A DNA stretch of 64,000 bases, from IMG/VR virus record IMGVR_UViG_3300024046_000025, positions 1-64,000 of that record. One strand, given 5' to 3'. The position numbers were made by a program, and so were the translations under genes. Source of the DNA: a virus. Its lineage: Duplodnaviria > Caudoviricetes. The notes below the pieces were generated by a model that saw nothing but the letters and a program-made list of their open reading frames with translations, searched no databases and was not told the origin of the DNA. Shown here one piece after another: positions 9,628 to 37,731 of the stretch (within the stretch, counting starts at the first letter, position 1; each line of letters opens with the position of its first letter).

Positions 9628-9927
9628 ATGGTAAGGACAAAGATTGACGAGCGGCGCGAGCGGGAGGAATACGACCGCAAAAACCCGTGGCGTCCAATGA
9701 CCGAGCCTGTCGAGGCGGGGCAGGTGTGCGAGTTGCTGTTCAGCGACATGGAAACGTCAAGGAGCCGACACTTTATCCTGCATGAGGATGGAAGGTGGTA
9801 CGAAATTGATCCGCCTCAGAAGGTCGGGTTTGGCCGCAAACCAATGAATTGGCGACCTGTACCAAAGAAAATTTCACCCGCGAAGCGCCTCGAAGTTGTC
9901 ACCCAAGCAAATAGGAGCCGATGGTAA
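9628..9927 (+). CDS. Hypothetical protein
   Basis: ORF abutting the antiterminator gene. Confidence 0.6.
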   Translation: MVRTKIDERREREEYDRKNPWRPMTEPVEAGQVCELLFSDMETSRSRHFILHEDGRWYEIDPPQKVGFGRKPMNWRPVPKKISPAKRLEVVTQANRSRW

Positions 9928-10508
9928 TGGCTTGGTATGTGGTTCGTACGAATATCAAATGCGAGGACAAGGCGGAGCGGAATCTGAAGGCCACCGGCTT
10001 CCGCACTTATGCCCCGTGGCAGAAGTTTGAGCGCCTGAACCGCCGCAAGCGCGTATGGGTCCAGCACGAGATGCGTTTGGCCCCGCGCTATCTGTTCCTC
10101 GATACTGGCGACTTGAACCGTGAGCAAACCCCCTGGGGCCTAATTCGTGGTTGCGAGGGTGTAGAAAAAGTTCTCGACAACCAAGGGCTCCCGATCCCGC
10201 TCAACAGCGATGAGGTAAAAGCCTTGCATTCCATCATGGATGCCGAGCGTGATTTCGCCTTTGACGAGACCCGCGCTGGCAAACTCCACCGCCGTGAAAT
10301 CGGAAAGACCCGCAAGGAAACAACGAAGATGCGTTTTCCTGTTGGAAGCAAGGTCCGCATTAGCGATGGCCCATTTGCGACATTTGGCGGTGAAGTCACC
10401 AACGTGACGGGCAGGGGGCATCTGATGGTAATGACTGAAATCTTCGGCCGGCTGACACCTGTGGAACTTGAGGCAGGGCAGGTCGAGAAACTTGCATCGG
10501 CTGCCTAG
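9927..10508 (+). CDS. NusG/RfaH-family antiterminator (Q position)
   Basis: WYVVRTN NGN domain, PRYLF, KOW VRISDGPFATFGGEV, IFGRLTPVEL. Confidence 0.9.
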   Translation: MAWYVVRTNIKCEDKAERNLKATGFRTYAPWQKFERLNRRKRVWVQHEMRLAPRYLFLDTGDLNREQTPWGLIRGCEGVEKVLDNQGLPIPLNSDEVKALHSIMDAERDFAFDETRAGKLHRREIGKTRKETTKMRFPVGSKVRISDGPFATFGGEVTNVTGRGHLMVMTEIFGRLTPVELEAGQVEKLASAA

Positions 10509-11033: not shown

Positions 11034-11828
11034 ATGCTCGATATCAGCCTGTCTCTTTGGGTCGGGGGGAGGGTAGGGCACGGCTCTGGTTACGACCCCG
11101 ACGCCGAGGCGCTATTCGCCCGCTTCACCACGCCACCCACGGTTGAGCGCAAGGCCGCGATCAACGCTTTGATCGTCGCCCTAAAGGGCGCTTCTGCGTG
11201 GGAAAAGCTGGACGTGCTGTATGTGCGGGCGGCAGCGGATAGCCAGGCGGCGCGGCTGAACTGGAAGCAGGACCAGTATAATAGCACGGCGGTTTCTAGC
11301 CCCGCGTTCACGGCGGATCGAGGCTTCACGCCGGATGGTGCAGCTTCGTACCTGTCCAGCGGTTTCAACCCGACCGTGGCCACCGACGCACTATTCGCGC
11401 AGGACGATGCTCATGTTGGTGCTTGGCACCTTACTGACCTGTCGAATGGCGGCTCCACAAGCTACGACCTCGGAAATGGTAACTCCCGCGTCAGCAATTC
11501 CGCATCAGCCAACACAGCGCTGCGCGGCAATATGGATACCACCATCACCCTCTCCGGCGATGACTATACCAAGCACAAGGTCTGGACGCGTGATGGGGCA
11601 ACCTCCTGGCGCTACTTCAACGATGGCGCGATGGTGGGTGGCAACCCGCGCACCGATGCCTCTGTGGCCCTCACCAACTTCGAGTTCGGGACCGGCCGCG
11701 CCTTGTCGAATGGCTTCGGCGTGAACACCGAAGCCATCTCCCATTGGGGCGCGTCCCTCTCTCCCGCCCAGGTGCTCGCCATGCGCGATGCCTTTGCTGA
11801 CTATCTCCAAACCGTAGGAGCCATCTGA
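11034..11828 (+). CDS. Putative head-spike/fibre protein
   Basis: Beta-rich; N-terminal MLDISLSL docking-like peptide; near a spike-base homologue. Confidence 0.5.
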   Translation: MLDISLSLWVGGRVGHGSGYDPDAEALFARFTTPPTVERKAAINALIVALKGASAWEKLDVLYVRAAADSQAARLNWKQDQYNSTAVSSPAFTADRGFTPDGAASYLSSGFNPTVATDALFAQDDAHVGAWHLTDLSNGGSTSYDLGNGNSRVSNSASANTALRGNMDTTITLSGDDYTKHKVWTRDGATSWRYFNDGAMVGGNPRTDASVALTNFEFGTGRALSNGFGVNTEAISHWGASLSPAQVLAMRDAFADYLQTVGAI

Positions 11829-29595: not shown

Positions 29596-30228
29596 ATGGC
29601 CAAACTCAACGCGGAGCAGGTGTTCCGCGCGAAGACGCCTGCCATCATGGCGCAGCTTATGCGTGATTTTCCCATCACGCCGGTAGATGCAGCCGCGATC
29701 CTCGGCAACCTCGGGCACGAAAGTGCCGGACTGACCACCCTTCAGGAGATCAAGCCCGCAGTTCCGGGATCCAAGGGTGGCTATGGATGGGTGCAGTGGA
29801 CCGGCCCACGACGCCGCGCCTATGAGACATATTGCAAGCGCACCGGCAAAGACCCGGCCAGCGATGAAGCCAATTATGCATATCTGTTCCTGGAACTGAA
29901 AGGCATAGAGGGCAGCGAAGGAGGGGCTATTGGCAAACTGGTTGCGGCCGAGGGGTTGGATGCTAAGGTTGAAGCGTTCGAGCGCGCGTTTCTGCGTGCG
30001 GGCGTGAAGCACTACCCCAGCCGCAAGCAGTGGGCCGCCATCGCGCTCGATGCGTGGCGGGTCAAGTCCAACACCGGCATTCCGATCCCCAATCCCACGC
30101 CAGAGCCACAGCGCCCGCAGGGGGCTGAAAAGCTCGAACGAGGCAAAGCACCCATCATCCTCATCATCTTCGCCCTGGCCGCCCTCGCAGCGGCCCTTTT
30201 CTTGCTCCCCATTTTCCCGAAAGGCTGA
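29596..30228 (+). CDS. Endolysin, phage tail-type lysozyme family, with C-terminal TM helix
   Basis: AAILGNLGHES, GYGWVQWTGPRR, FERAFLRAG; IILIIFALAALAAALFLL. Confidence 0.8.
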   Translation: MAKLNAEQVFRAKTPAIMAQLMRDFPITPVDAAAILGNLGHESAGLTTLQEIKPAVPGSKGGYGWVQWTGPRRRAYETYCKRTGKDPASDEANYAYLFLELKGIEGSEGGAIGKLVAAEGLDAKVEAFERAFLRAGVKHYPSRKQWAAIALDAWRVKSNTGIPIPNPTPEPQRPQGAEKLERGKAPIILIIFALAALAAALFLLPIFPKG

Positions 30229-30233
30229 ACATC

Positions 30234-30548
30234 ATGGGCATTCTCGAAAACGTCGCCATCCAGTGGCTTATCCGGCGCATCCCCGAGGTCGGCGGGCTGC
30301 TGCTCACCATCGTGACCTTCTTTGCCGCCATCCCGCCCGAACAGCAGGCGGTCATCATCGCTATTCTCACTGGCAATGGTGGGGGCCTCACGGTCGGGGC
30401 GGTCATTGGCCTTGCCATGTGGATCTATGCCCAGGTCATGAGTTTCCGCCAGACCACCAAGCCCAAGGTCGTGGAGCAGGTCGCCGGCCGGCCCATGGAG
30501 ATCAGCAGCGGCAGGAAATCCCTGCTCGATATCCTGCTGGGCAGGTGA
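30234..30548 (+). CDS. Putative holin
   Basis: Two TM segments, basic C-terminus, next to endolysin. Confidence 0.6.
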   Translation: MGILENVAIQWLIRRIPEVGGLLLTIVTFFAAIPPEQQAVIIAILTGNGGGLTVGAVIGLAMWIYAQVMSFRQTTKPKVVEQVAGRPMEISSGRKSLLDILLGR

Positions 30549-30596
30549 CTATGGGGCGGCTCCGGCCGCCTCCCTTTATTTCGAATGAGGCCGCCC

Positions 30597-30830
30597 ATGT
30601 CTGGACCAAAAATCGACTTCACCATCAACCTCGGCCATATCATCACCTTCACCGGGTTGATCGTCACCATGGCCTTGGGCTGGTCAACCTTTGACGGCCG
30701 ACTACGAGCCGTCGAAAAGACGCTGGAGACCACCACAGCAACGCTGGTGGAACAGGTGCGCCAGGGGAGTGCCATTCAGGCGCTTGACCAGCGCATGCAG
30801 CGCGTCGAGCGTATCGTGGATGCTCGGTAG
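30597..30830 (+). CDS. Lysis-cassette membrane protein (TM + coiled coil)
   Basis: INLGHIITFTGLIVTMALGW then heptads. Confidence 0.65.
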   Translation: MSGPKIDFTINLGHIITFTGLIVTMALGWSTFDGRLRAVEKTLETTTATLVEQVRQGSAIQALDQRMQRVERIVDAR

Positions 30831-30864
30831 TCATCCGGGCACAAATATTATTGCGCCCGGATGA
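30831..30864. terminator. Hairpin between convergent lysis and radC operons
   Basis: TCATCCGGGC ... GCCCGGATGA perfect 10-bp inverted repeat. Confidence 0.7.
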
Positions 30865-30871
30865 CGGAGGA

Positions 30872-31525
30872 TCAGCCGTTCAGAAGCTTCATTGCCCGCA
30901 TGGAAACATGCCCGCACCTGCCGATGATGATATGGTCATGAACCAGAATTCCCATCGGTTTGGCCACGGTAATGATCTCATGAGTCATCCGAAGATCGGC
31001 GGATGACGGCGCAGGATCGCCAGAGGGATGGTTGTGGACCAATATGAGCGAGATGGCCGACAATTCTAGCGTCCGCCGGATCACCTCGCGCGGATAGATA
31101 GGCGTATAGTCCACCGTACCGACCTGCTGCACCTCATCAGCGATAAGGCGGTTCTTCTTGTCGAGGAAAAGAACCCGGAACTGCTCGATGCTCTCGAAGG
31201 CCATTGCTGTGTGACAGTAATCCAGGAGCTGTGGCCAAGAGGTTAGAATTGGCCCTGCATCGCAAATTCGTTCCTTGGCGATTTGCTGTGTTGCCTCCAT
31301 CACTGTCGATAGAAGCCGAGCCGTGGCAGGGCCTACTCCTGCCACCTCCTGCATCCGATAGGATGGCGCCGCGATTGCCGCAGGCAGAGAGCCGAAACGT
31401 CGCAGTAATCCGGCTGAGATTTCCCTGGATCTCCTGATCCCCACGGCCGAGGAAAGTAGCCGAGTCAGAAGCTGTTCCTGGTCCTCGGCAGTCCATCTGG
31501 CAACGTACCTTTTGGTGTGCTGCAT
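30872..31525 (-). CDS. radC: RadC-family JAB/MPN domain protein with HhH
   Basis: LLRRFGSL, EVAGVGPA, EQFRVLFLD, VHNHPSGDPAPSSAD, VHDHIIIG; starts 1 nt after luxI stop. Confidence 0.93.
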   Translation of the reverse strand: MQHTKRYVARWTAEDQEQLLTRLLSSAVGIRRSREISAGLLRRFGSLPAAIAAPSYRMQEVAGVGPATARLLSTVMEATQQIAKERICDAGPILTSWPQLLDYCHTAMAFESIEQFRVLFLDKKNRLIADEVQQVGTVDYTPIYPREVIRRTLELSAISLILVHNHPSGDPAPSSADLRMTHEIITVAKPMGILVHDHIIIGRCGHVSMRAMKLLNG

Positions 31526-31526
31526 T

Positions 31527-32147
31527 TCATGCCACCTTCTCCTTCTGGTAGTCAGAAAGAATAGGTCCTGCCAGCCGGCCAAAGCGCCGCGCTCCGGCCA
31601 ATGCTGCTTCCGTCACATCGAAATAAGCCGGAAGCCAGGCCTCTCCGCCAATATCAATGGCGTCGCCGTGAATATGGACCTGCCATCCCATGCGCCTCCA
31701 GATCGCCAGCCATTTCGCGTCCTGAATGCCACCGACCTGGCGGTATCCATTGGCTAAGCAGTATTCCATCACGGCGGCGCAGCACTGGGCCTTGAGAACG
31801 AGCCCCCCGCCTTCGCGGCGGTGAGCCACGACGAAACCGCGCGTCCATTCGACTATGCGGGGATCGCGCGGCATAGGCAGAAGGTTGCACGTATCCGGGA
31901 AAACCTCGCTCAGCATGTGGGGCAGGTGGGTTGGCACCAGTCGGGATCCGGCCACAAGCTCACTGCCATCAATGACCAACAGATAAGCTGCATGGGCAGT
32001 ATCGAATTGGTCGACCTCCAAATTGTCAGGGGATGGAGGCACCCATCCTAGCTCCTCCGCATAAACTTTGTGGCGAGCCCGGTAGAAATGCTCGAGCTCC
32101 AGTTGAAAGAGATGTTCGTTCGTACGCGTAACGAAGTTAAATTGCAT
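31527..32147 (-). CDS. luxI: Acyl-homoserine-lactone synthase (LuxI family)
   Basis: RARHKVYAEELGW, LEVDQFD, GSRLVPT, EWTR conserved residues; GGAGG RBS. Confidence 0.92.
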   Translation of the reverse strand: MQFNFVTRTNEHLFQLELEHFYRARHKVYAEELGWVPPSPDNLEVDQFDTAHAAYLLVIDGSELVAGSRLVPTHLPHMLSEVFPDTCNLLPMPRDPRIVEWTRGFVVAHRREGGGLVLKAQCCAAVMEYCLANGYRQVGGIQDAKWLAIWRRMGWQVHIHGDAIDIGGEAWLPAYFDVTEAALAGARRFGRLAGPILSDYQKEKVA

Positions 32148-32277
32148 CTCACCCTCCAAGCGTTAACGGAGGGAAGGTGCAATTGCGTCTAGATCCTTTC
32201 CTATTGTCCTTCGGGACGGTTGTCAGGCCGAATCATCGGAGAAATATAAGAGAGTGCAGCTAGTTAGGGTGCGATGC

Positions 32278-33003
32278 TCATAGGATAATTTGGCGTGATC
32301 TGATTGCTTTGGCGACGGCGTGCGTTGTGGTTGTGGCGTTCAGTTTCACCCTGGCATGGGCGAGGTGTTCCTTCACCGTTCGTTCGGAGAGCATCAGGAT
32401 ATCTCCCACATCAAGGTGGGATTTCCCGTTGGCTACCCACCGCAGGACCTCCCGTTCTCGCTCAGTCAATCGTGCAATAGCGGTTACATTGTCATCGTGG
32501 ATTTCCACAGCGCGCATTTCCGCATGCAGGCAGATCAGATGTAACATTTCGCGCCCAAGCGTATCGAGCTCCACCGGCCTGTCAGTCGCTAAGGAAACAA
32601 CTGCCTGCACGCTTGAGGGGTCGCCCATCGGAAAGCCGATGCCATCAGCCAAGCCTAGGCCAGAAGCTTCGCTGGCGATCTGCGAGGCAACCCGTGTTCT
32701 TCGGCTTCCTTTCCGTGCCTCTTTCCAAGAGAAGGGGCGCGTCCGCGTCAGAGAGAAAAGGCTGACGGGGTCATGCCAAAAATATTGGCCTTGGCGGTAT
32801 CGGGTTAGCCAAGCCTCTGGCCAGGTATGCGCAATAATATACGGCTCTGCATCTTCTCCCAAGGAAGGGAGCCGTGTCATCATGAAGTAGTCAAAACCAA
32901 TGTTTTTTAATGTGGTCGAGAAATCAACAATTAGCTCATGGAAAATTTTATGTTGATCGCAGCGGTCAATAAATGCCATTGCCTGGCAGACGATCTCCTG
33001 CAT
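32278..33003 (-). CDS. luxR: LuxR-family AHL-responsive regulator
   Basis: W..Y (EAWLTRY), HDPV, FSW, GIGFP autoinducer pocket; LTEREREVLRWVANGKS HTH. Confidence 0.93.
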   Translation of the reverse strand: MQEIVCQAMAFIDRCDQHKIFHELIVDFSTTLKNIGFDYFMMTRLPSLGEDAEPYIIAHTWPEAWLTRYRQGQYFWHDPVSLFSLTRTRPFSWKEARKGSRRTRVASQIASEASGLGLADGIGFPMGDPSSVQAVVSLATDRPVELDTLGREMLHLICLHAEMRAVEIHDDNVTAIARLTEREREVLRWVANGKSHLDVGDILMLSERTVKEHLAHARVKLNATTTTHAVAKAIRSRQIIL

Positions 33004-33178
33004 TCCCTCCTCCGCAATCTTGCCTGCGAATTAATACTAATTACTTATAAAGAATGTCAGTAGGAAAATTACGAATTGTCCATAAGTGGGGTTGCTGTTA
33101 GCCACCTTGCCAACTAAATGGCGATTTGTTTCCGTATTGGAAACCGCATTCTGAGCAATGGGAGGCTGCTCCCGTTAG

Positions 33179-33490
33179 ATGGTATTAGGAAGGGTGACGC
33201 CCGATAATCTCATGATCGCAGATTTGAGCTACAAAAAAACTCCGGCGTCAGATGATGTTGTTGTTGAGCTATTTTGGCAGCGCGGCACTAGGATGGGGCA
33301 GGTAAAATTGCCTCCTTGCTTGGAGCAAAGTGTAGCTGAGAATGGTTTGCCTAATCTCACGCCGCTGCCTGTTATTTCAGCCGTGGCCTACGCAATGGTG
33401 CTAGCAGCTCAGACACGTCGCAGCCTGACGCTTTCTGGTGATGACCAAGTGTGGCCACTGGAGTGGGGTAGCCTGGTCCGCGTCCACTAG
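33179..33490 (+). CDS. Hypothetical protein divergent from luxR
   Basis: GGGAGG RBS; low-GC ORF. Confidence 0.65.
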   Translation: MVLGRVTPDNLMIADLSYKKTPASDDVVVELFWQRGTRMGQVKLPPCLEQSVAENGLPNLTPLPVISAVAYAMVLAAQTRRSLTLSGDDQVWPLEWGSLVRVH

Positions 33491-33522
33491 TGGGAAGGCA
33501 GCGCCAAATCGTGAATTGACGT

Positions 33523-33537
33523 GTTCCATTTTTGTTC
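33523..33537 (+). promoter_or_regulatory. Alphaproteobacterial LexA (SOS) box in a sigma70-like promoter
   Basis: GTTC-CATTTTT-GTTC directly after TTGACG -35 (33516). Confidence 0.8.
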
Positions 33538-33566
33538 TCATTTCTACTCGCCTGTGGAGGTGAGAA

Positions 33567-33773
33567 ATGTCAGAGCAAAAATCCGGCGGCATCGATGGTG
33601 CCCATAACTATCCCATGGATGCGGCAGACGGGATGCGGAAAATGCTGGAATACAAGGCGGAGATGCGACGGCAGCATGACGAACGGATTGCCGAGCGCAA
33701 GGCCCAACGTGAGGCCGCGAGAAAAGCCGCCAAGCAGGTTCCGCCAGTCGAGTATCCTTGGATGAAGGAATAG
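33567..33773 (+). CDS. Small charged helical protein, SOS-box controlled
   Basis: GGAGG RBS; directly downstream of LexA box. Confidence 0.7.
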   Translation: MSEQKSGGIDGAHNYPMDAADGMRKMLEYKAEMRRQHDERIAERKAQREAARKAAKQVPPVEYPWMKE

Positions 33774-33774
33774 G

Positions 33775-34020
33775 GTGCGCCCGACACCAGCCGATTCTCC
33801 CTATGAAGATCGTTCCATGACTACCGAACTCGTTCCTTCCGGTCCCGACATCACCCGCGACGGCAAGTCTGTCACGCCTTTGGCTTCCCTGTATCGCTGT
33901 GAGGGTTGCGGCTATGTCGGGGCGCCCTTCGGCTACAAGCGCGGCGATGAAGTGGTGAGTTATTGTGGCTGGGACGGCCATAAGCCGATCTGCGTGGGGA
34001 AGGGTAAGGCGGAGCGGTAA
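33775..34020 (+). CDS. Small Cys-containing (Zn-finger-like) protein
   Basis: CEGC...YCGW...IC; start GTG 33775 or ATG 33817. Confidence 0.6.
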   Translation: MRPTPADSPYEDRSMTTELVPSGPDITRDGKSVTPLASLYRCEGCGYVGAPFGYKRGDEVVSYCGWDGHKPICVGKGKAER

Positions 34021-34090
34021 GGGTGAGAACCAGGCGCCGCGGAACATGCTAGCAACATGCTGTACCGACTTTGTACGCACCTCCCTGCCA

Positions 34091-34116
34091 GTTCTGATTC
34101 TGTTCTTGCATCGTTC
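34091..34116. promoter_or_regulatory. Tandem LexA boxes GTTC-N7-GTTC-N7-GTTC
   Basis: GTTC at 34091, 34102, 34113. Confidence 0.7.
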
Positions 34117-34214
34117 TGCAAGGTTTGGTGAGGATGATAGGGGTGGGGAAATCTCCCCCGGCGGCGACAAAGCCCTTGCCTTATGGCCTCATTGCCCTGT
34201 ATCAGACCCACGCC

Positions 34215-34307
34215 GGAGAGGTGGCCGAGTGGTCGAAGGCACGCCCCTGCTAAGGGCGCAGATGGTGATGAACTGTCTCGAGGGTTCGAATCCCTTCCTC
34301 TCCGCCA
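34215..34307 (+). tRNA. trnS: tRNA-Ser(GCT)
   Basis: GGAGAGG acceptor, CGCCC-CTGCTAA-GGGCG anticodon arm, long variable arm, GTTCGAATC, CCA. Confidence 0.95.
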
Positions 34308-34688: not shown

Positions 34689-35525
34689 ATGTCGAACGGG
34701 CCCTGGACGGATGAAGAGAACGACCTGATCGTCGCGGATTACTTCGCGATGCTCGCCGACGACATTGCCGAGCGCCGATACAGCAAGACGGAGCATCGCC
34801 GAGCACTCCTGCCACTGCTGAATGACCGGTCCGAGGGTTCGGTCGAGTTCAAGCACCAGAACATCAGCGCGGTGCTGAAGGGGCTCGGCGAGGACTGGAT
34901 TCCTGGCTACAAGCCGGCGTTCAATTTCCAGATGACGCTGGTCGATGCGGTGGCGCGCTGGCTCGCGCTCCATCCCGACTGGCTCGGCCGGATGCCGGGC
35001 ATGCGTCCGGTCACCGGCTTACAGGAGGCCACGCGGCTCTGGATCGGCCCACCCCCTACGTTGTCCAACCAGCCACCGCCGCAGGAGCTGGAGCAGATGC
35101 TGCATATCGCCCGCAAATTCGATGTCGCGGGCCGGGACGAGCGAAACCGCGCGCTCGGTCGCGCGGGCGAGGAATGTGTGCTGGCGCATGAGCAGGCTTC
35201 GCTTCAGGCCGTGGGGCGCGAGGATCTGGCGCGGAAGGTCCGCTGGGTATCGGAAGAGGATGGCGACGGCGCAGGTTATGATATCAAGAGCTTCGCACCG
35301 GATGGGCGGTCCCGCCTGATCGAGGTGAAGACGACGAACGGATGGGAGCGCACGCCGTTCCTGATCACTCGCAACGAACTGGCCGTGGCCGAGGAACGCC
35401 GGTCGGAATGGCGCCTGTTCCGGCTATGGAACTTCTCGCGCGAGCCGAAGGCCTTCGAGCTTCACCCGCCGCTCGATGCCCATGTTGCTCTCACCGCGAC
35501 GACGTTTCAGGCGAGCTTTCACTGA
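34689..35525 (+). CDS. DUF3883 (NO VEIN C-terminal) PD-(D/E)xK nuclease-like protein
   Basis: ALGRAGEECV, DGAGYDIKSF, LIEVKTT. Confidence 0.8.
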   Translation: MSNGPWTDEENDLIVADYFAMLADDIAERRYSKTEHRRALLPLLNDRSEGSVEFKHQNISAVLKGLGEDWIPGYKPAFNFQMTLVDAVARWLALHPDWLGRMPGMRPVTGLQEATRLWIGPPPTLSNQPPPQELEQMLHIARKFDVAGRDERNRALGRAGEECVLAHEQASLQAVGREDLARKVRWVSEEDGDGAGYDIKSFAPDGRSRLIEVKTTNGWERTPFLITRNELAVAEERRSEWRLFRLWNFSREPKAFELHPPLDAHVALTATTFQASFH

Positions 35526-35528
35526 CGA

Positions 35529-35912
35529 TCAGCCGAACACCTTATTGGCTTGCTCCGGCCACGGCGCGGCCGTTGCTTCGACGAGGGACATGAGGCTGAC
35601 CGCCGGAGACTCCCGGCCGCAGGTCAGGCGTTTGAGGACGGTGGGCGACAGATAGGCCAATCGCAACTGGCGACTGACATGCCGCTCTGCCAGACCGACA
35701 GCCTTGGCGAGATCATGGACCGTGGCGAACTCTCCGGCTTCCATGCGGCGGCGCCAACTCCACGCCCGGCCGATGGCGCGCAGGACGTGAGGATCGGGAG
35801 TACGGTCCTCGCTCGGGCGATAATCCACCGGCGGCAGGAGCTTCGGCCGCCCGTTCTTCTTTCGCACTTTCAACGGGATCAGCACCCTGATCGTGTCATT
35901 GGCTTGCGTCAT
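35529..35912 (-). CDS. Recombinase-associated hypothetical protein
   Basis: RAIGRAWSWRRRMEAG...LRLAYLSP; coupled to recombinase. Confidence 0.75.
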   Translation of the reverse strand: MTQANDTIRVLIPLKVRKKNGRPKLLPPVDYRPSEDRTPDPHVLRAIGRAWSWRRRMEAGEFATVHDLAKAVGLAERHVSRQLRLAYLSPTVLKRLTCGRESPAVSLMSLVEATAAPWPEQANKVFG

Positions 35913-37228
35913 TACTCCGCAGCCTCCATGCGAGCGGGTGCGATCATCTCGCGGATGACCCCACCGATGCCGTCGGCCCGGACATCGACCGCGAGCCCGT
36001 CAGCGGTCACGGTGACGCGCCGGACGAGCAACTGAATGATCCGCGCTTGTTCCGCAGGAAAGAGCTGGTTCCAGAGCGCACCGAAATCGTTCAACGCAGC
36101 GATGACCTCGGCTTCTCGAACCTGCGGGCCATCCTGCTGCAAGGCGGCGAGAACCTTCGTCACCACCTCGGGCGTCTGCACGATACGACGGACTTCCGTC
36201 ACCACCGCGTCCTCGACCATGCCCGCCGGAAGCCGCGACGGCACTTCGGATTCGCCACCCTCGCGGTTCCGGATCACATCCATCGAGACATAGTAGCGGT
36301 AGAGCTTGGTTCCCTTGCGCGTGGCCGTCGGCGTCATGGCTGCGCCGGTTTCGCTGAAGATCAGGCCCTTGAGCAGTGCAGGCGTCTGCATCCGGCTGTT
36401 GTTCGCACGCTTGCGCGGGCTCTCCTGCAAAATGGCGTGGACGTGGTTCCAGAGCTCGGCGTCGATGATGGCTGCATGCTCGCCGGGATATGCCTTCCCT
36501 TTGTGGACGGCTTCACCTCGATACACGCGGTTATTCAGCAAACGGTAGAGGTAGCCCTTGTCGACCAGCGTCCCTTGCTTGTTTCGGAACCCCTGCGCAC
36601 GCAGTTCGCGGGCCAGCGTCGTCGCCGAACCGAGTTCGATGAAGCGTTCGAAGATGCGGCGCACAGCGGCAGCCTCGGCCGCGTTGGCCACCAGCTTGCG
36701 ATCCTGAACATCGTAGCCGAAAGGCACATAGCCGCCCATCCAGATCCCGCGCTTCCGGGATGCCGCCACCTTGTCGCGGATCCGCTCGCCTATCACCTCG
36801 CGCTCGAACTGGGCGAAGCTGAGCAGGATGTTCAGCGTGAGCCGTCCCATGGACGTGGTGGTGTTGAATGATTGCGTGACGCTCACAAACGTCACTTCGT
36901 TCCGGTCGAACACCTCGACCAACTTCGAGAAATCCATCAGCGAGCGCGAGAGCCGGTCGATCTTGTAGACGACCACGACGTCGATAAGTCCGTCCTCGAT
37001 GTCGGCGAGCAGCCGCTTCAGCCCCGGGCGGTCGAGTGTGCCGCCGGAGAAGCCGCCGTCATCATATCGCTCCCGGATCGTGGCCCAGCCTTCCGACCTC
37101 TGGCTGGCGACATAGGCCTCGCAGGATTCGCGCTGGGCATCGAGGCTGTTGAATTCCATGTCGAGTCCTTCCTCGCTCGACTTCCGGGCATAGATGGCGC
37201 AACGAAGGCGGCGTTTCGGGTTGACCAT
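35912..37228 (-). CDS. Large serine recombinase (integrase)
   Basis: CAIYARKS catalytic Ser, YKIDRLSRS, LSFAQFERE, GGYVPFGY. Confidence 0.93.
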   Translation of the reverse strand: MVNPKRRLRCAIYARKSSEEGLDMEFNSLDAQRESCEAYVASQRSEGWATIRERYDDGGFSGGTLDRPGLKRLLADIEDGLIDVVVVYKIDRLSRSLMDFSKLVEVFDRNEVTFVSVTQSFNTTTSMGRLTLNILLSFAQFEREVIGERIRDKVAASRKRGIWMGGYVPFGYDVQDRKLVANAAEAAAVRRIFERFIELGSATTLARELRAQGFRNKQGTLVDKGYLYRLLNNRVYRGEAVHKGKAYPGEHAAIIDAELWNHVHAILQESPRKRANNSRMQTPALLKGLIFSETGAAMTPTATRKGTKLYRYYVSMDVIRNREGGESEVPSRLPAGMVEDAVVTEVRRIVQTPEVVTKVLAALQQDGPQVREAEVIAALNDFGALWNQLFPAEQARIIQLLVRRVTVTADGLAVDVRADGIGGVIREMIAPARMEAAE

Positions 37229-37236
37229 GCCCTCCA

Positions 37237-37731
37237 TCAGGCACCCTCCCGCTCACGCAGGCCGAAGAAGCGGTAACCATTCCAGCGGGTGCCGGTGATC
37301 TCCCGAGCCACGGCAGAAAGAGAGCGGAACCTGCGGCCCTGCCATTCGAAGCCGTCGTTCATGACCGTCACGGTGTGCTCGATCCCGTTCCATTCACGAA
37401 CGAGTCGGGTTCCCGCGACAGGATTGCGCGGATCGGCGATCTGGTTCTTGCCGCGTCCGATACCTTCCACCTCGTCCGCCAGCAGGTCGAGCATTCGCCT
37501 GGTGTCACGGTCGGGGCCGCCGTAGGCCAGCTCCTGGATGCGATGACCGATGCGCAGTTCGAGAAAGGCACGGCTGTTGTTCGGAGACGTCCCGCCGAAC
37601 AGAGCCTGCCAATCGATCTTCAGTTCCTTCACCGATTTGGACTTCAGCGCCGTCAGCCGGGCGAGCACCGTTCGGTCGACCTCGGCGCTCATGCCGGGGG
37701 TCTGCGCCACCATCCTCTTGTCATGCTTCAT
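37237..37731 (-). CDS. DUF2924 domain protein
   Basis: GTRLVREWNG, SLSAVAREITGTRWNGYRFFGL. Confidence 0.85.
   Translation of the reverse strand: MKHDKRMVAQTPGMSAEVDRTVLARLTALKSKSVKELKIDWQALFGGTSPNNSRAFLELRIGHRIQELAYGGPDRDTRRMLDLLADEVEGIGRGKNQIADPRNPVAGTRLVREWNGIEHTVTVMNDGFEWQGRRFRSLSAVAREITGTRWNGYRFFGLREREGA

Follow-up and report, generated by a model that had tools for sequence, protein, structure and literature searches.

A Devosia quorum-sensing module with a coupled radC gene beside the lysis genes of a prophage

What is a complete quorum-sensing circuit, coupled to a radC gene, doing directly behind the lysis genes of a prophage? The question is raised by the window, a stretch of 64,000 nucleotides (64 kb) that comprises positions 1-64,000 of the IMG/VR record IMGVR_UViG_3300024046_000025. 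A cassette at 30872-33003 holds three co-oriented minus-strand genes, luxR, luxI and a full-length radC, and a divergent gene, p103, lies next to it at 33179-33490. The answer that we favour, and regard as fairly likely, is that the four genes form a horizontally mobile, self-contained N-acyl-homoserine lactone (AHL) quorum-sensing module of the genus Devosia with a coupled cargo gene, and that the copy in the window is a probable passenger of the prophage. The evidence for this lies in the conserved layout of the module, in its distribution, in the exchangeable gene behind luxI and in the way the window copy is fitted between two phage elements.

The cassette and its regulatory sites

Domain matches and coordinates bear out the sequence-only reading of this DNA in its description of a complete LuxR/LuxI pair and a full-length radC in one orientation, with a single nucleotide between luxI and radC. 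The genes and sites of the module in the window are as follows.

32278-33003, minus strand: luxR, a LuxR-type AHL receptor and transcription factor of 241 aa (PF03472, 1.7e-25; PF00196, 3.1e-15)
31527-32147, minus strand: luxI, an AHL synthase of 206 aa from the conserved ATG at 32147 (PF00765, 6.3e-21)
30872-31525, minus strand: radC, a module-type RadC paralogue (JAB domain) of 217 aa from the ATG at 31525 (PF04002, 2e-40; TIGR00608)
33179-33490, plus strand: p103, the divergent fourth gene of the module, beside luxR in 14 of 14 loci
32203-32220, minus strand: lux-box-like dyad ACCGTCC-N4-GGACAAT, 18 bp, about 55-73 nt 5' of the luxI ATG, at the same position in 12 of 12 loci
32152-32173, minus strand: hairpin in the 5' untranslated region that pairs an anti-Shine-Dalgarno CCCTCC with the luxI Shine-Dalgarno GGAGGG (RNAalifold, 12 loci)

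LuxR has both the N-terminal autoinducer-binding domain and the C-terminal GerE/LuxR helix-turn-helix (HTH) domain. The solved structures closest to it are CviR, RhlR, QscR and LasR, the alignments with CviR, RhlR and LasR spanning both domains, and its identity to the LuxR of other module loci is 65-74%. The PF00765 match of LuxI scores 75 bits against a cut-off of 24 and covers residues 20-185. Its best solved matches are synthases of the BjaI/RpaI type (PDB 5W8A, 6WN0), at moderate identity: BjaI (9.5e-32), 6WNS and the 4-coumaroyl-homoserine lactone synthase 6WN0 rank at the top with values of 1e-32 to 1e-29 for the group, compared with 2e-16 or worse for 3P2F, EsaI and LasI. BjaI and RpaI use acyl-coenzyme A (acyl-CoA), and the other solved synthases (3P2F, EsaI, LasI) use acyl-acyl carrier protein. 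These rankings provide a lead that the LuxI of the window may belong to the CoA-using clade. RadC passes the NCBIfam models TIGR00608 (178 bits against a cut-off of 134) and PRK00024 (180.2 against 180). The motif that had been called HNH is actually the HxH of the JAB metal site (HNHPSGDP) and not the signature of an HNH nuclease. The joints between the genes are the same in two other, independent assemblies, an ENA contig that equals window positions 23775-44020 and a Logan contig that equals 30543-34173, which makes mis-assembly unlikely.

The fourth gene, p103 (103 codons), has its likely start at a conserved Met at 33212, giving a protein of 92 aa. The predicted model is alpha/beta with a pLDDT (predicted local distance difference test) of 74. 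The protein has no match in Pfam, PHROG, PADLOC or NCBIfam; a fold search of the model against the PDB found no match and the ESM Atlas yielded unnamed clusters only. The interval between p103 and luxR holds no further open reading frame (ORF) and no xre gene, and luxR comes first in the series.

The luxI stop codon TGA occupies 31529-31527 and the radC ATG 31525-31523, and an AAGGAG-type ribosome-binding site for radC lies within the 3' end of luxI. Measured from the end of the luxI stop codon, the start of the following gene falls between -4 and +2 nt throughout the 12 loci compared. Because this junction is conserved and the dyad lies upstream of luxI, luxI and radC are read as one unit; we infer, in agreement with the earlier proposal, that they are almost certainly carried on one mRNA. 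The half-sites of the dyad vary together across the 12 loci (GTCC/GGAC, GTGGA/TCCAC, GGCC/GGCC, GTCG/CGAC and, in L086, where the dyad is markedly different, ACGTGA/TCACGT), which is the pattern expected for a lux box co-evolving with its LuxR. An exact copy of the window's dyad occurs in the 64 kb only once, at 32203-32220 itself, and the remaining matches in the window all have 3 mismatches and are as many as expected by chance. A candidate second lux box in the luxR-p103 spacer (33075-33092, 3 mismatches, with 2% of shuffles as good) was rejected, as it is absent in the other 11 loci. The hairpin in the 5' untranslated region has 10 predicted pairs over the 12 loci, 4 of them with compensatory changes such as C-G to U-A in 4 sequences, and may control the translation of luxI. 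A palindrome of the TTTACCAAT-TGGTAAA type lies just 5' of luxR in three or four loci (G003, G029 and G038 are named) and not in the window copy; a different regulator may bind there.

Distribution, cargo slot and the RadC paralogue

The module consists of p103 facing away from luxR, luxI and the coupled cargo gene. It was followed through 14 loci in all, a number reached by reading eight further p103-family contexts; the comparison of junction and dyad covers 12 loci, and the cargo is readable in 13. Every named carrier is a Devosia. Three Devosia genomes contain relatives of LuxI at 78-80% identity, each accompanied by LuxR, RadC and p103, and these loci share no other content. Some LuxI is found in 63 of 243 Devosiaceae species genomes and the full module in 5, including two Devosia metagenome-assembled genomes, D. 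riboflavina IFO13584 and D. chinhatensis. About 50 Devosiaceae genomes carry a different LuxI (~35% identity) with a LuxR and without RadC. In a collection of 5.8 billion proteins the p103 family amounts to no more than 33 clusters, whose named members are all from Devosia. The gene was not found on plasmids, and a metagenome scan with p103 gave two incomplete contigs and no usable locus. Among GenBank phages the window DNA was matched only at a tRNA, and LuxI gave five weak matches of 27-32%. The cassette is not an invention of the phage; what emerges instead is a mobile module restricted, by its named carriers, to Devosia. No description of a luxI-radC operon was found in the literature searched, as the sequence-only reading had anticipated.

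LuxI of the same clade (66-74% identical) also stands alone at G005 C6:34890-35486, in L014 (G041) and in L016 (G071), with no LuxR, RadC or p103 within 1.5 kb, and D. riboflavina has four LuxI matches in total. A gene for an SOS-response-associated peptidase (SRAP) is found beside the p103 side of the module or within ~1.2 kb of it at L041:12656-13336, L095:4088-4765 and L106:5378-6064, and in D. chinhatensis the SRAP gene is followed by a gene for an impB/mucB/samB-family (Y-family) polymerase.

RadC is the gene after luxI in 11 of the 13 readable loci. In L090 the slot (L090:3271-8324, minus strand, with a tyrosine integrase at its far end) holds an unknown 332-aa protein, an 81-aa ORF, HxsB, HxsC and HxsA of the His-Xaa-Ser radical-SAM system and an unknown 212-aa protein. 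In L086 it holds a 442-aa protein without a family match. RadC is thus the usual and not the sole output of the module, and the earlier idea of RadC as its output has to be widened to several cargoes of which RadC is the commonest. The presence of the His-Xaa-Ser system in the same slot suggests that its expression, too, is controlled by density.

RadC matches are found in 231 of the 243 Devosiaceae genomes, in nearly all as a single copy, and the five module-bearing genomes have two each. The six module RadCs group together in a tree of 36 sequences, as one clade with support of 100/99, apart from 30 housekeeping Devosiaceae RadCs. The end branches of the module RadCs measure 0.18-1.02, compared with 0.08 as the median for the whole tree of 36 rows, which has no outgroup; by this measure they are fast-evolving. 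The JAB metal motif HNHPSGDP and the upstream glutamate of DEV are intact in all six. The two halves of the protein differ in conservation.

Module against housekeeping RadC: N-terminal half 28-44% identical, JAB half 69-94%
Module RadCs among themselves: N-terminal half 38-63% identical, JAB half 65-80%

With a conserved JAB half joined to a divergent N-terminal half, it is the latter that would carry the function specific to the module. The nearest relative of the JAB half is, in two genomes, the genome's own housekeeping RadC (94% in G003, L048 against L078; 89% in G038, L049 against L081), and the N-terminal halves of the same two proteins are only 34-39% identical to their own housekeeping copies. 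This likeness suggests either gene conversion with the resident radC or a very strong constraint on the JAB half. In the N-terminal half of the window RadC a helix-hairpin-helix region can be recognized by eye, with a visible GVG hairpin motif and no Pfam match, and the RadC homologue of L095 has a weak HHH_5 match. No activity of RadC is agreed upon ('RadC, a misleading name?', cited in PMC3239186), and gene contexts have been used to argue that RadC-type JAB domains act on nucleic acids (PMC3239186).

A slot of this kind could carry a density-gated defence or counter-defence, RadC and the Hxs proteins acting on incoming phage or foreign DNA at times of crowding among kin. A swappable cargo behind luxI on a mobile element would suit such a role, and so would the fast evolution of the module RadCs. 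RadC domains are fused to the anti-restriction protein ArdC, to primase and to DinG-type helicases on mobile DNA (PMC3239186). HxsB and HxsC have weak viperin-family matches, and a candidate of the PDC-S36 type (3e-131) lies 0.4 kb beyond a tRNA-Ser gene in the window. In the comparison with PADLOC, however, RadC has only a marginal JAB match (E 0.0026), LuxI and p103 have none and LuxR is matched via its HTH only; moreover, the JAB half of RadC differs little from its housekeeping counterpart. A defence role is therefore considered quite improbable.

Placement beside prophage A

The full record is a 77.5-kb IMG/VR 'provirus' holding two prophages, of which prophage A lies to the left. The module adjoins the end of its lysis genes, and the following features are needed to judge the placement.

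1092-1703: repressor of prophage A
9921-10508: Q-like antiterminator gene of prophage A
29596-30830, plus strand: lysis cassette of prophage A, with the endolysin at 29596-30228 (PF18013 Phage_lysozyme2, 4.9e-21) and small genes at 30234-30548 and 30585-30830
30830-30865, both strands: perfectly paired 15-bp hairpin that separates the lysis cassette from the radC stop (plus strand -27 kcal/mol, z -3.8; minus strand -30 kcal/mol, z -5.3)
33510-33541, plus strand: 32-nt LexA-box-type promoter element, 20 nt past the p103 stop, with 30 of 32 nt shared with a cassette-free provirus
L005:11535-11566: second site of this element, 30 of 32 nt identical to window 33510-33541
33567-34020, plus strand: two small genes, p68 and p81b, behind the LexA-box promoter (ORFs, no family match)
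34215-34307, plus strand: tRNA-Ser(GCT), with its 3' end toward prophage B (ARAGORN)

The module block, 2.7 kb at 30866-33509, fits exactly between the late-operon hairpin and the 32-nt promoter element. The hairpin between lysis genes and radC, already noticed in the sequence-only reading, starts at the stop of the last lysis gene (30830) and ends 6 nt before the radC stop (30872), and no U-tract accompanies it on either strand. A comparably strong hairpin after radC is found in none of eight other loci, so that the hairpin in the window is most likely that of the phage late operon. The provirus IMGVR_UViG_2895559670_000001 has homologues of all three lysis genes and, 177 bp further on, the same promoter element, with no cassette; it is otherwise unrelated to prophage A, and the genes beyond the shared promoter differ. 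On the right flank, which had been described as phage-like small genes, the first gene (33179-33490) is the conserved module gene p103, and two further small genes, p68 and p81b, lie beyond the LexA-box promoter. A homologue of p81b was not found in GenBank phages.

The position at the late or lysis end of a prophage, also pointed out earlier, has its like in three other loci, where the module stands by unrelated phage lysis or tail genes. In the metagenomic locus L106 radC stands tail-to-tail with an unrelated lysis cassette, made up of a PF00959 lysozyme gene and two small genes, whose end is 5 nt away. D. chinhatensis has a tail-fibre gene and a GH108 endolysin 5 kb upstream of the module, and G038 has phage ejection-type genes and a DnaB helicase upstream of it. 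It is, on this evidence, fairly likely that the module resides inside prophage A as phage cargo, and it would then be packaged in virions.

Alternatively, the module may lie outside the prophage, as a chromosomal islet or the remnant of an integrase element at a hot spot between two prophages beside tRNA-Ser; it would then be a host-side circuit that is not packaged. A number of findings speak for this and weigh against the module as phage cargo. In D. riboflavina, G004 and L094 the module sits amid metabolic genes with no phage genes nearby, and scans with LuxI and with alignments of LuxI, p103 and LuxR found no other IMG/VR viral contig that carries it. A conserved tyrosine integrase family (~480 aa, 71% identical) flanks the module, on either side, in G038, L088 and L090, and a fragment does so in L095.

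L042:12640-14088, L088:10709-12142 and L090:1760-3199: module-flanking tyrosine integrases
L095:292-507: fragment of such an integrase

This flanking fits an independent islet as well as a phage end, and also fits prophage remnants. The 77.5-kb record itself contains no tyrosine integrase. The sequence-only reading had looked to attL and attR for a decision. Searches for direct repeats across the window, between the tRNA-Ser region and the 77.5-kb record and between the left end of the contig and 30.8-34.4 kb all gave repeats of 13 nt or less, which is chance level, so that no att sites delimit prophage A. As three assemblies break inside a gene near window position 1, the attL of prophage A is not readable. 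With neither att sites nor a tyrosine integrase found, residence of the module inside prophage A stays a probable one. The homology with the cassette-free provirus past the lysis genes amounts to 32 nt only, and that record is a trimmed provirus prediction. The second prophage begins just past the tRNA-Ser, which points to an accretion site, and the module's GC content at third codon positions is 0.54-0.64, below the prophage mean of ~0.70. On the side of function, RadC is without a settled biochemical role, and AHL responsiveness, the action of RadC and the co-transcription of luxI and radC are all predicted from sequence.

The close fit argues in the other direction. The 6 nt from radC to the hairpin and the 20 nt from p103 to the promoter element hardly offer space for att sites, an unrelated lysis cassette in L106 again has the module tail-to-tail behind it, and the window copy has no integrase. 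An islet outside the prophage is thus viewed as a tentative alternative, somewhat unlikely for the window copy, and the module as a probable passenger of prophage A remains the reading that we prefer. The integrase in G038 is no proof of a module inside a prophage, because the same integrase family is found beside the module in phage-free loci.

The wider surroundings are those of two distinct phages. Prophage A (about 60% GC) shows, from left to right, the repressor, methyltransferases, a DnaB-type helicase and an O-like initiator, followed by the Q-like antiterminator, a tRNA-Trp, terminase, portal, scaffold, capsid, tail and other virion genes, and the endolysin with its two small genes. 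The latter may encode a holin and a spanin, to judge by position only. The repressor has no match among PDB sequences. Assembly breaks occur near window ~1 (inside a gene) and at ~11490-11576 in the IMG record, two ENA contigs and a Logan contig, and since separate assemblies break at both its ends, the early region of prophage A, 11.5 kb long, seems to vary as a mosaic unit within the population. Prophage B (about 67% GC) comprises a NOV_C gene, a serine recombinase at 35912-37237, a DUF2924 gene, an M78/IrrE-type peptidase, and replication and siphovirus-type tail genes. The NOV_C-domain protein, encoded at 34689-35525 on the plus strand right after the tRNA-Ser, is a full-length match to PDC-S36, a PADLOC model for a candidate defence gene (E 3e-131), with weaker matches to PD-T4-1 and TmtA. 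Past the right end of the record (L100:15314-23966), after the last tail gene of prophage B, genes for PglZ, an SNF2-type helicase and an N6/N4 methyltransferase on the opposite strand make up a BREX-like set.

Proposed function and comparison with known systems

As a self-contained module, the four genes would work in the following way. LuxR would bind the AHL made by LuxI, and the signal would probably be derived from acyl-CoA or aryl-CoA, a proposal based on the nearest solved synthases. Bound to the dyad ~65 nt 5' of luxI, the LuxR-AHL complex would activate a single luxI-radC transcript; signal production would be self-reinforcing, and RadC would be made only at a high density of cells with the same module. 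RadC, with its module-specific N-terminal half and a JAB domain whose metal site is intact, would be the enzymatic output, acting most likely on DNA or on a DNA-bound partner, as may the RadC of competence regulons. In the window the four genes would have been inserted right after the late-operon hairpin and ahead of the small LexA-box operon as a passenger of the moron type, and not as a lysis-lysogeny switch.

A switch is what the sequence-only reading had proposed: the lysogen would use its own AHL to count fellow lysogens, and LuxR or RadC would set lysis-lysogeny or induction, as in arbitrium or in the xre-luxR-luxI switches of Roseobacter. Lysogeny-maintaining LuxI/LuxR modules of prophages are indeed known in Phaeobacter, the placement at a prophage end recurs, and the small LexA-box operon that adjoins the module could encode an SOS-linked antirepressor. 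However, the sole lux box of the window is the one before luxI and none is found at phage regulatory genes, the spacer candidate not being repeated in the other loci. The repressor and the Q-like antiterminator are separate and 30 kb away, and there is neither an xre gene nor an HTH partner. The form of the module is unchanged in phage-free loci, and cargo other than RadC is accepted. With a single lux box in the window, and with a repressor, a Q-like antiterminator and a LexA-box operon belonging to the phage itself, an arbitrium-like role is unsupported, and the counting of lysogens is judged very improbable.

The module as a whole, with its exchangeable cargo, also invites a more speculative view, which is put forward as unlikely: p103 and luxR-luxI may be a portable density-gated expression socket of Devosia temperate phages and integrase islets, with effectors that plug in behind luxI. 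Lysogens with the phage-borne copy would gauge how dense their fellow carriers are, and the N-terminal half of RadC would redirect the JAB enzyme to incoming or recombining DNA, either that of superinfecting kin phage or DNA taken up. If this holds, RadC has an inducible, separable paralogue, which would be the first clean way to learn its role. An extra, presumably dispensable RadC paralogue on one promoter predicted to be AHL-controlled is in any case present in an isolate, D. riboflavina IFO13584, and could provide an inducible handle on the near-universal RadC.

RadC has been tied to cell-cell signals before. Streptococcus pneumoniae has radC among its late competence genes, which are governed by peptide quorum sensing (PMC6560143), and RadC is likewise tied to the CRP-S competence regulons of gamma-proteobacteria (PMC1635313). 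The likeness is a RadC tied to a density or competence signal, and the RadC of competence is a full-length protein of the housekeeping type (~220 aa). The difference is that there a housekeeping gene belongs to a large regulon, whereas here an extra paralogue is wired to an AHL synthase with no linked competence genes.

On the Mesorhizobium symbiosis integrative and conjugative elements (ICEs), TraR/TraI quorum sensing leads to excision and transfer via dedicated regulators. The Devosia module is similar in that LuxR and LuxI are carried on an integrative element in the Hyphomicrobiales, and different in that the cargo gene behind luxI is its sole direct output observed. These ICEs are the subject of PMC5882170. 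In phages, LuxR-type receptors respond to host-made autoinducers, according to Silpe and Bassler (mBio 2019, PMC6456758). Those receptors and the Devosia module have in common an AHL receptor on phage DNA, to which the module adds its own synthase and an enzymatic output gene.

The closest parallel is found in the prophage modules of Phaeobacter and other Roseobacter bacteria, in which hth stands next to xre-luxR-luxI. They act as a lysis-lysogeny switch, undergo cassette exchange and persist in degraded prophages (Bunsick et al., bioRxiv 2026, doi 10.64898/2026.07.02.736140), and such modules were found in the Roseobacter clade only (doi 10.64898/2026.07.02.736140). Their description in July 2026 has made the earlier remark that a synthase plus receiver pair is unusual out of date. 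In both systems a temperate phage of an alphaproteobacterium is the background of a complete LuxI/LuxR pair, and both are four-gene mobile cassettes with a counter-oriented gene 5' of luxR. In contrast to the Roseobacter switches, the Devosia module has no xre, and no HTH is predicted in its p103; behind luxI comes a coupled cargo gene (RadC); the module stands behind lysis genes and not in the immunity region of a phage that has a separate repressor; and the host is Devosia (Hyphomicrobiales). Complete mobile LuxI/LuxR circuits are thereby extended beyond the Roseobacter prophages, and with a different logic, in which the synthase is coupled to a swappable effector and not to a phage switch.

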